NCBI GenBank assembly: GCA_964408775.1
Contig: CAYPAP010000002.1
Location: 65,109-129,108, forward strand
Source: an uncultured Gammaproteobacteria bacterium
GTDB taxonomy: Bacteria > Patescibacteriota > Patescibacteriia > Patescibacteriales > UBA12465
DNA: 64,000 bases
Direction of reading: 5' to 3'
Shown here: in pieces, positions 10,622 to 12,306 of the stretch
How the letters are laid out: the number at the start of each line of letters is the position of its first letter
Position numbering within the stretch: the first letter of the stretch is position 1
Notes under the pieces: generated by a model
The model's input: only the letters and a program-made list of their open reading frames with translations
Told to the model about the DNA's origin: nothing
The model's database searches: none
Position numbers and translations under genes: made by a program

Positions 10622-11713
10622 ATGTTAGACAAAAGATTAAAAAATAAAAAAGTTTTAGTAGCTATTTCTGGAGGAGTTGACTCAGCGGTGTCAGCTCATC
10701 TTTTGATTCAGGCTGGTTATTCTGTTAGTGGAATTTTTTTAAATTTCTGGAAGGATAATAGTGAACCTAGTTCAGAAAATAAGTGTTGCTCAATTCAGGC
10801 TCAAATGGATGCTAAAAAAGTTTGTTTAAATTTAGGTATCCCATTTTACACCTTTGATTTTTCTAAGGCTTTCAAAAAGGAGGTAGTCGATAATTTTTTA
10901 AATGAATATGCTATTGGTCGCACACCAAATCCTTGCGTTGTCTGTAATAAGAAAATAAAAATTGGGGGACTTTTGGAATATGCTAAATCCTTGGGCTTTG
11001 ATTATTTGGCCACTGGTCACTATGGTTATATAGAAAAAGATGGGAAAGACTATAAAATGTTTAGAGGGGTCGACAAAAATAAAGATCAGACTTACTTTTT
11101 ATATACCTTAAACCAAAAACAATTATCTAAATTATTACTACCCTTGGGTAAATTAAAAAAACCAGCTGTTAGACAAATTGCCAAGAAAGCCGGATTATTA
11201 GTAGCCTCTAAAAGCGATAGCCAGGAAATATGCTTTATTTCTGGTAAGCGTCATAATGATTTTTTAAAAAAATATTTGAAATTAAAGCCCGGCGAGATTC
11301 GATTGTTGGGTGATAATAAAAAGGTTGGTGAACATCAGGGGCTGTCGCTTTATACTATCGGACAAAGGAGGGGAATAGAAATTGGTGGAGATGGTCCTTA
11401 TTATGTAGCGCAATTTGATTATGATAAAGATATATTATATGTAGTTCGCAATTTTAATGACACTATTTTATATAGCTCCAGCATGACATTAACTGATGTT
11501 AATTGGATGAACTTAAAAGAATTAAAATTTCCTCTAAGGGCTGACGTTGTAATTCGCTACCAACATAAACCAGTTAAGTGCTTAATTGATTATAATAAAA
11601 AAAATAATACCGCTCAGGTAAAATTTTTTAAGATACAACGTGCCATCACTCCCGGCCAAAGTGCCGTCTTCTATCGCGATAGCGAAGTTCTAGGTGGAGG
11701 AATAATTAATTGA
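10622..11713 (+). CDS. mnmA: tRNA 2-thiouridine(34) synthase
   Basis: PP-loop SGGVDSAV, TPNPCVVCNKKIK, and LATGHY followed by KDQTYFLY; 363 aa. Confidence 0.93.
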   Translation: MLDKRLKNKKVLVAISGGVDSAVSAHLLIQAGYSVSGIFLNFWKDNSEPSSENKCCSIQAQMDAKKVCLNLGIPFYTFDFSKAFKKEVVDNFLNEYAIGRTPNPCVVCNKKIKIGGLLEYAKSLGFDYLATGHYGYIEKDGKDYKMFRGVDKNKDQTYFLYTLNQKQLSKLLLPLGKLKKPAVRQIAKKAGLLVASKSDSQEICFISGKRHNDFLKKYLKLKPGEIRLLGDNKKVGEHQGLSLYTIGQRRGIEIGGDGPYYVAQFDYDKDILYVVRNFNDTILYSSSMTLTDVNWMNLKELKFPLRADVVIRYQHKPVKCLIDYNKKNNTAQVKFFKIQRAITPGQSAVFYRDSEVLGGGIIN

Positions 11714-11720
11714 GATCTTG

Positions 11721-11770
11721 CCTTCCGTGTCACCCCCGGCGAGCGTAGCGAGGGAAGGGGGTCCAGGGTT
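11721..11770. repeat. left inverted-repeat arm of the GIY-YIG cassette
   Basis: CCTTCCGTGTCACCCCCGGCGAGCGTAGCGAGGGAAGGGGGTCCAGGGTT. It pairs with 12122-12212. Confidence 0.85.
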
Positions 11771-11798
11771 GGTCCATATAAATAATAATACTTATAAA

Positions 11799-12050
11799 AT
11801 GACCAAAGAGTACAATTATTATATTTATATATTATCAAATAAAAGAAACGGAACATTATATATCGGAGTAACTAATAATTTACTCTCAAGGACATTCCAA
11901 CATAAATTAAAAGAAAATAAAAATAGCTTTAGCGCTAAATATAAAACAGACAAATTGGTTTATTATGAAAATTATCAATATATTGAAGACGCTTTAAATA
12001 GAGAGAAGGAGTTAAAAAAATGGAATAGATCTTGGAAAATAAAAAATTAA
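11799..12050 (+). CDS. small GIY-YIG nuclease (COG2827-like), apparently frameshifted; the conserved C-terminus continues in the -1 frame to 12100
   Basis: YIYILSNKRNGTLYIGVTNNLLSRTFQHK...KLVYYE...REKELKKWNRSWKI. The ATG at 11799 is preferred over the track start at 11718, which lies in the repeat arm. After the A6 run (12041-12046) the -1 frame reads KLIEEENPTWRDMFRDMD*, matching the family C-terminus as I recall it. Confidence 0.8.
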   Translation: MTKEYNYYIYILSNKRNGTLYIGVTNNLLSRTFQHKLKENKNSFSAKYKTDKLVYYENYQYIEDALNREKELKKWNRSWKIKN

Positions 12051-12121
12051 TAGAAGAAGAAAATCCTACTTGGAGGGATATGTTTAGGGATATGGATTAA
12101 TAACAAAAGATTTATCGAGTT

Positions 12122-12212
12122 AACCCTGGACCCCATTCCCTTCCCACGTAAAAACTCTCAGTTGCACTTCGTGCACCTTCGAGTTAACGTGGGTCGCCGG
12201 GGGTGACAAGGG
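12122..12212. repeat. right inverted-repeat arm of the GIY-YIG cassette with a nested hairpin
   Basis: AACCCTGGACCCC..CCCTTCCC, then the nested hairpin CCCACGT(12143-12149)...ACGTGGG(12187-12193) with an inner TGCAC-TTC-GTGCA, then TCGCCGGGGGTGAC. Confidence 0.85.
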
Positions 12213-12224
12213 AAAAATAAATTG

Positions 12225-12306
12225 TGCCGATGGTGGGAATCGAACCCACAAGCCTTGCGGCACACGAGTTTGAGTCGTGCGTGTTTGCCAGTTTCACCAC
12301 ATCGGC
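12225..12306 (-). tRNA. tRNA-Leu(CAA), class II with a long variable arm
   Basis: The reverse complement folds as a cloverleaf: acceptor GCCGATG/CATCGGC, anticodon stem CACGA/TCGTG with loop CTCAAAC (anticodon CAA), 13-nt variable arm, T arm GTGGG-TTCGATT-CCCAC, discriminator A. CCA is not encoded. Confidence 0.93.

Follow-up and report, generated by a model that had tools for sequence, protein, structure and literature searches.

A GIY-YIG gene between two inverted hairpin motifs beside a patescibacterial tRNA-Leu gene is probably a frameshifted Ssn/SRM mobile cassette

What kind of element places a small GIY-YIG nuclease gene, boxed in by GC-rich inverted repeats, in the gap between mnmA and a tRNA-Leu gene? 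The question arises from a 64,000-nucleotide stretch of contig CAYPAP010000002.1 of an uncultured patescibacterium (assembly GCA_964408775.1, positions 65,109 to 129,108 of the forward strand). The whole stretch is called the window below, and coordinates given without a locus label refer to it. An earlier reading of the letters alone, the original prediction, had offered two answers, a minimal mobile cassette or a long-range RNA stem enclosing the open reading frame (ORF), and had considered the arrangement to be new. Our analysis indicates that positions 11725-12211 are probably an SRM-ssn-SRM cassette, that is, an Ssn-type gene with two inverted hairpin motifs (Ssn-related motifs, SRMs), which came in as a mobile insertion and survives here as a frameshifted relic.

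The cassette is a discrete unit of 487 bp, in which the GIY-YIG gene lies between two GC-rich inverted arms. As had been predicted, this single unit fills the gap between the mnmA stop codon (11711-11713) and the 3' end of the tRNA-Leu(CAA) gene (12224-12306, minus strand). A repeat search paired the outer parts of the arms (11725-11742 with 12194-12211) over 18 nt at 94% complementarity and the inner parts (11744-11770 with 12122-12148) over 27 nt at 85%. The three perfectly complementary blocks of the original prediction were recovered at the same positions, and so was the nested hairpin of the right arm, whose stem joins 12143-12152 to 12184-12193. In the 64 kb there are exactly two occurrences of the outer 14-mer, where 0.03 would be expected, and none of 100 shuffles gave two matches; the inner 13-mer likewise has exactly two. 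The left arm has a G+C content of 72% and the right arm one of 57%, while the window has 33.5% and the ORF 24%.

A system with this layout is known. The Ssn family (cd10448) comprises single-domain GIY-YIG proteins of about 100 residues, which bind a hairpin-forming repeat provided that the DNA is single-stranded (Chenal et al. 2025, Nat Commun 16:2388, PMC11893778). Ssn enzymes, of which four homologs were tested in vitro, cut a few nucleotides upstream (5') of the hairpin and on the motif strand only; the identity of the loop is dispensable for cleavage, and loop extensions are tolerated (PMC11893778). The repeat is named NTS in Neisseria (CGTCATTCCCGCGMAVGCGGGAATCYRG) and SRM in general. 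Most ssn genes are flanked by the repeat on both sides, an NTS-ssnA-NTS arrangement that has been likened to an insertion sequence, and extra dispersed motif copies are frequent in the family, though not obligatory (PMC11893778). The claim of novelty in the original prediction therefore falls, since a small GIY-YIG gene with hairpin inverted repeats on both sides had already been described in that paper, after which we found nothing further in the literature on Ssn mobility.

We count the cassette as a putative member of the Ssn/SRM system by the size and domain content of its protein, by the oriented repeats on both sides and by homology to NTS-flanked proteins. The product matches Pfam PF01541 over residues 6-81 (E 8e-16), and its homologs (n=1730) are typically 99 residues long and single-domain, with the intact ones spanning 100% of the query. 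This is the Ssn architecture of one GIY-YIG domain in ~100 residues, the window copy itself having 83. Hairpins with oriented flanks (GTCA 5', TCYRG 3') stand on both sides of the gene. Homologs at 50-61% identity have NTS-consensus flanks, and one locus (L014) contains an exact match to the NTS consensus, CGTCATTCCCGCGAAGGCGGGAATCCAG. The window thus has in common with NTS-ssnA-NTS a ~100-residue single-domain GIY-YIG protein type, inverted hairpin flanks (GTCA 5', TCCAG 3') and solo copies of the motif elsewhere, whereas its host is an AT-rich patescibacterium, its gene is frameshifted and only two motif copies occur in 64 kb.

Each arm is predicted to fold on itself in single-stranded DNA, and both are composed of the same modules: TGTCA as the 5' flank, an outer stem of 5 bp, a conserved purine-rich internal loop (GGCGAG / CGAGGGAA), an apical hairpin and a 3' TCCAGG. 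Each arm is oriented with GTCA outward and TCCAGG towards the gene. The left arm (11725-11770, plus strand) is a minimal SRM, with its core at 11728-11767 reading TGTCA / CCCCC / GGCGAG-CGTAG-CGAGGGAA / GGGGG / TCCAGG. The right arm (12122-12211, minus strand) is a long-form SRM, and its core at 12125-12208 reads TGTCA / CCCCC / GGCGA / apical hairpin / GGGAAGGGAAT / GGGG / TCCAGG. The apical hairpin, located at 12143-12193 in the right arm (CCCACGT...ACGTGGG, no strand assigned), is the variable module of the motif and is free in sequence and length, from 5 to about 50 nt. Folded as single-stranded DNA, the right arm reaches -19.7 kcal/mol (z -2.7), and long arms overall have z values of -2.7 to -3.1.

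The arms share the oriented GTCA/TCYRG flanks and the C-rich/G-rich stem with NTS, and differ from it in the loop: where NTS has 3-5 nt, they have the internal loop GGCGAG/CGAGGGAA and, on top of it, a variable apical hairpin. On sequence grounds, we assign them to the SRM class by the shared flanks, the outer stem and the existence of intermediates. One such locus (L212) combines an upstream arm of the long-loop kind with a canonical SRM of 28 nt on the downstream side, and two others have a short form with the window's own stem (L011 and L046; TGTCACCCCCGCGTAGGCGGGGGTCCAG, i.e. TGTCACCCCCGCG(T/A)AGGCGGGGGTCCAG). The minimal form, GGCGAGCGAAGCGAGGGAA, recurs in L040, L083, L105, L126, L184, L206 and L212, so the minimal left arm is not simply a deletion product. 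The left arm of the closest copy of the unit, L001, carries an apical hairpin that is unrelated in sequence to the one in the window's right arm and has the same shape and the corresponding position.

The association of gene and motif extends far beyond this locus. Scanning one genome per species yielded 80 loci with homologs at 49-74% identity, from Patescibacteria, Bacteroidota, Alpha-, Gamma- and Deltaproteobacteria, Planctomycetota, Chloroflexota and others. The strict published SRM pattern was found near the gene in 55/82 loci. With a relaxed hairpin finder (GTCW, a perfect stem of at least 6 bp, a loop of up to 60 nt, then TCY), motifs lay within 250 nt of the gene in 77/80 loci, and motif density was 4.73 per kb near the gene versus 0.18 per kb at distances above 1 kb. 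The nearest upstream motif was mostly on the gene strand (48 vs 12) and the nearest downstream motif mostly on the opposite strand (49 vs 19), which is the arrangement of the window. Over the window, the arm excepted, the same finder remained at chance level (30 real matches vs 29.5 in shuffles). The protein is unusually conserved across phyla, with 50-60% identity among Patescibacteria, Bacteroidota, Proteobacteria, Planctomycetota and Chloroflexota, and the sequence of the GC-rich motif is preserved even where the genome has 33% G+C; these two observations fit a joint horizontal spread of the enzyme and its site.

The long-loop form was also abundant in metagenomes, where a scan with the pattern TGTCAYCCCCGGCGA...GGGRTCYWG retrieved at least 120 loci (L082-L201). 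Nearly all of the listed matches share the series TGTCA / YCCCC / GGCGAG / variable hairpin / CGAGGGAA / GGGGR / TCCAG(G), and conservation drops sharply beyond TGTCA and TCCAGG. The source contigs mostly have 57-72% G+C and mostly come from soil; L182 is one AT-rich contig (38% G+C). Among the matches listed, 108/120 loci are solo motif copies without the gene, and 12/120 contain a GIY-YIG homolog (44-52% identity). In L132 the gene is enclosed exactly as in the window; in L099, L116, L184 and L192 one side of the gene directly adjoins a motif copy. The central segment, from GGCGA to the 3' outer stem and mostly made up of the apical region, differs in 116/117 distinct copies listed, so that a hypervariable centre is set within a nearly constant frame. 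In 63% of the copies this segment terminates in a perfect stem of 4 bp or more, as compared with 6% of shuffles, and the first outer pair covaries (T/A 107, C/G 7, mismatched 3). No Rfam family and no literature text matches the long-loop motif. The long-loop SRM is a distinct subclass, which the published search pattern misses.

Do such cassettes move? Those of L205, L213 and L214, which come from three different samples, are 98.2-98.9% identical over 600-700 nt, and their flanks are unrelated: L205 lies beside tRNA-Leu, L213 follows an xth (exonuclease III-like) gene and precedes unrelated sequence, and L214 precedes a porA-like (pyruvate:ferredoxin oxidoreductase-like) gene. Homology among the three runs from CC(G)TGTCA at the left end to ...GGGGGTGAC(A) at the right end. 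L001, which lies after an xth-like gene, shares 96.6% identity with the window unit, and its homology with that unit starts at CCGTGTCACC, i.e. at 11725. Neither an xth nor a porA homolog is present in the 64 kb. That near-identical cassettes recur in three unrelated settings and break off sharply at the motif termini shows that the cassette moved recently as a unit, whose ends coincide with the 5' flanks of the two motifs. Comparison of natural loci thus documents here the recent mobility that was only hypothesised in PMC11893778.

The mnmA/tRNA-Leu junction itself is polymorphic among relatives, the best-named of which, by MnmA, are Falkowbacteria. In L215 (MnmA 83%) the junction is empty and consists of about 35 nt of (A/G)GATCTT repeats (L215:3593-3630), in keeping with the mobile-cassette half of the original prediction. 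The window (MnmA 100%) has the cassette there, with 511 nt in all. Its left insertion flank, GATCTTGCCTT (11714-11724, no strand), falls outside the cassette in the alignment with L215 and L203 and retains, at 11714-11719, one GATCTT unit of the repeats found at the empty site. Other relatives have other content: L203 (MnmA 92%) holds a PF05635 gene boxed by inverted arrays of the (A/G)GATCTT repeat, L204 (MnmA 92%) holds another gene, and in L216 (MnmA 84%) the 437 nt that separate mnmA from parA contain no called gene, as compared with a gap of 700 nt in the window and 223 nt in the empty L215. The slot between mnmA and tRNA-Leu is therefore a local hotspot for small cassettes and not the target of this element. 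In accordance, a tRNA was found within 1 kb of the gene in 0/81 other loci, and L205 alone shares a downstream tRNA-Leu with the window, so the idea that tRNA adjacency is a property of the element had to be given up.

The gene (11799-12050, plus strand) is truncated to 83 codons by a premature TAA at 12048-12050. Its product retains the conserved residues Y10, Y21, G23, R31, H35 and E69 in the alignment, and intact homologs finish with ...WKIKLIEEENPTWRD.F.DM. The cause of the truncation is an A-run at 12041-12047 (plus strand), where the window has A6 and L001 has A4. The two extra A residues in 12041-12046 end translation after 83 codons, and the conserved C-terminus is lost to the -1 frame. 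The displaced segment, LIEEENPTWRDMFRDMD plus a stop codon (12047-12100, plus strand, -1 frame), carries the family-invariant L84, I85, E86, N89 and W92. Since the identical 83-residue product is recorded in four sources (NCBI, JGI, Logan and ENA assemblies) and the locus of L202 is identical to that of the window, the frameshift is probably real. The loss of the conserved C-terminus, together with the lack of any further motif copy in 64 kb, indicates that this copy is most likely an inactive relic and probably decaying. The original prediction was right about the GIY-YIG domain, and missed the true start and the frameshift.

The true start is the ATG at 11799, in agreement with the family start MTKE/MKKE. 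A 110-residue ORF that begins with TTG at 11718 (11718-12050) was rejected as an artefact, as it merely reads through the left arm. Gene callers make this extension repeatedly, here in the 110-residue TTG ORF and elsewhere in 117-residue JGI products (P0002, P0242), and it yields a false N-terminus, ...REGGPGLVHINNN... At the frameshift site, the two added A residues create A_AAA_AAT in the zero frame, which would correspond in form to a -1 slippery heptamer; a -1 shift at 12041-12047 would regain the conserved C-terminus plus one residue (WKIKN-LIEEENP...).

How might an intact cassette be mobilised? An Ssn-type protein would bind the arm hairpin only in single-stranded DNA and would cleave just the strand that carries the motif, a few nucleotides 5' of the hairpin. 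With the motifs on opposite strands and their 5' sides outward, cuts are predicted at both outer borders of the cassette, and the cassette ends coincide with the positions at which the tested Ssn enzymes cut. In the reading that we prefer, the nuclease would make the end cuts, and host replication or repair would complete the move. We put forward tentatively, as possible rather than probable, that SRM-ssn-SRM units are autonomous mobile elements with a new mechanism, in which a GIY-YIG nuclease acting on single-stranded DNA cuts 5' of the end hairpins and so defines the unit to be moved. IS200/IS605 elements are likewise small, have subterminal hairpins that are read in single-stranded DNA, and leave no target-site duplication. 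The cassette resembles them in its hairpin-defined ends, in the lack of a target-site duplication and in its small size, whereas IS200/IS605 elements use an HUH transposase and carry both end hairpins on one strand, not inverted, unlike the window motifs on opposite strands. An IS200/IS605 or REP-RAYT element was rejected as a candidate, because the sole ORF is GIY-YIG and not an HUH/Y1 transposase.

Several results weigh against the identification of the locus as a mobile, decayed SRM-ssn-SRM cassette. Beyond the two arms, no motif copy exists anywhere in the 64-kb window, unlike the SRM-rich genomes of PMC11893778. No target-site duplication was detected in the window versus L215 or among the flanks of L001, L205, L213 and L214, and no excision junction was seen. 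The published degenerate SRM pattern, HGTCWYN(0-2)YYVSBRHN(0-5)WNVSBRGN(0-2)RNCYNB, has no match in the window; the arms fail it because its loop limit is 5 nt, as against loops of 19 nt (left) and about 62 nt (right). In addition, the minimal left arm folds no better than shuffles (z +0.66) with nearest-neighbour DNA parameters, a model that ignores tandem sheared G-A pairs and the GNA mini-hairpin. GC-GNA-GC is a known stable DNA mini-hairpin. The centre of the minimal arm, GC-GTA-GC, suggests that such a GNA mini-hairpin may form there beside tandem sheared G-A pairs. As for the relic, the assemblies with the frameshift may stem from one sample.

Some of these points bear on the alternative that survives best, according to which a host nuclease has been domesticated together with the sites it binds, similar to REP/RAYT. 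The cassette would then not be moved by its own enzyme and would spread only by horizontal transfer and by host homologous recombination between dispersed motif copies. Its role would be the control of incoming or replicating single-stranded DNA. In Neisseria, natural transformation was reported to be affected, and domestication was proposed (PMC11893778); solo motifs outnumber gene-linked ones among the metagenomic matches listed (108/120 without the gene), and the absence of a target-site duplication is also in its favour. We nevertheless consider this explanation unlikely. The window offers no other motif copy as a recombination target, and the empty L215 site has no motif. The 98-99% identical cassettes, which lie within three unrelated flanks and break off sharply at the motif termini, also speak against it, and decay of the gene in the window is unexpected for a useful host gene.

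The comparison with REP/REPIN repeats and RAYT (TnpA-REP), which is also made in PMC11893778, is close with respect to layout: a gene lies between inverted hairpin repeats that its product recognises as single-stranded DNA, and solo repeats are dispersed. The RAYT protein is an HUH/Y1 tyrosine transposase, whereas the window protein is GIY-YIG. RAYTs are usually fixed single-copy genes, while the window cassette changes location.

Far less probable is a free-standing GIY-YIG homing endonuclease, or a double-stranded-DNA transposon with terminal inverted repeats (TIRs) aimed at the 3' flank of tRNA-Leu. The catalytic fold and the selfish presence/absence behaviour, here a polymorphism beside a tRNA, are those of GIY-YIG homing endonucleases such as I-TevI and Seg, and there is a weak similarity to TIGR01453, the group I intron endonucleases (E 0.0019). 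That match, however, scores 18.3 bits versus a cut-off of 56.05 and covers 43/215 profile positions, and the intact family protein is a bare 99-residue catalytic domain without a DNA-binding domain. Rfam searches at permissive thresholds (E up to 10) of the locus and six related loci gave the tRNA as the sole match and no intron RNA; an intron-encoded group I GIY-YIG endonuclease was rejected on the TIGR01453 and Rfam results. Likewise, a classical TIR transposon was discarded, as there is no DDE domain and no target-site duplication in the window versus L215. The absence of an HUH transposase, the count of 0/81 for tRNA adjacency and the near-identical cassettes beside unrelated genes also contradict this alternative.

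A single-sequence search of the PDB gave no match, and a profile search returned only remote UPF0213 entries, BH0048 (1ZG2) and EF2693 (1YWL), with E values of 8e-4 and 0.07, respectively. These are small stand-alone GIY-YIG proteins and the closest solved structures, and the similarity is remote. To our knowledge, no association with flanking repeats is known for the UPF0213 subfamily.

Finally, we compared the two arms of related cassettes with each other. In 15/35 convergent arm pairs from the genome loci, the stems of the two arms differ, and each arm is self-complementary; in L206, for example, TTCCC/GGGAA upstream is combined with CCCCC/GGGGG downstream. Tandem arrays of arms on a single side were also seen (L205, L213, L214). 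The unlike arms, the covariation within arms and the tandem arrays argue against an inter-arm stem and fit recognition of each hairpin separately. Consequently, the other half of the original prediction, a long-range RNA stem formed around the ORF by pairing of the arms in a transcript for processing or translational control, is highly improbable: an RNA spanning both arms could pair over their complementary 18 and 27 nt, but related cassettes often have arms unlike in stem or form (L206, L212), the arms exist as arrays and as solo copies, no Rfam family matches, and the tested Ssn enzymes neither bind nor cut RNA (PMC11893778).

In these three close relatives of the window cassette, the left arm is repeated two or three times in tandem, the copies differing in their apical hairpins (L205:1-285, L213:374-561, L214:83-312), and the array of L214 starts with a truncated arm. 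L002 and L206 have added repeated half-sites (TGTCATTCCCGACAC..., TTTGTCACCCCCGATGAATAAAG...). Arm arrays therefore expand and erode to one side of the gene.

As to the surroundings of the unit, mnmA and parA were confirmed as the neighbouring genes. The tRNA-Leu(CAA) gene adjoins the insertion site outside the element; it is intact, and relatives conserve it whether or not they have the cassette. Inside the unit, promoter and terminator scans gave nothing on the gene strand and no terminator, and no other ORF of at least 30 residues was supported. At the empty site, the repeat unit reads (A/G)GATCTT(T/A). The L203 insert (L203:1501-1975) encodes a 119-residue PF05635 protein (23S rRNA intervening-sequence protein / bAvd-like), a second, unrelated small ORF with inverted flanks in the same slot. 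Contigs with the homolog P0005 (L207-L211) repeatedly stop about 160 nt past the gene, and L211 has an rve-type integrase gene after it. Broken assembly at the repeats may be the reason that close homologs are mostly on contigs of 1-3 kb.

An apparently new TIR-boxed nuclease has thus become part of a named and partly characterised system, and the locus can be annotated as an ssn pseudogene with two SRM repeats, its tRNA neighbourhood reflecting a local insertion hotspot and not a property of the element. The intact homolog P0001 and the bipartite hairpin would be a candidate new enzyme/site pair for tools that act on single-stranded DNA. To the work of PMC11893778, our analysis adds a long-loop SRM subclass, which abounds in soil metagenomes of high G+C content and extends to AT-rich Patescibacteria, as well as natural comparisons of filled sites, empty sites and multiple contexts, in which the cassette moves as a unit with its ends at the motif termini. 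If SRM-ssn-SRM units are indeed autonomous elements, the patescibacterial cassettes, 98-99% identical at three loci, would be currently active, and the hypervariable apical hairpin might be a by-product of the transposition cycle.

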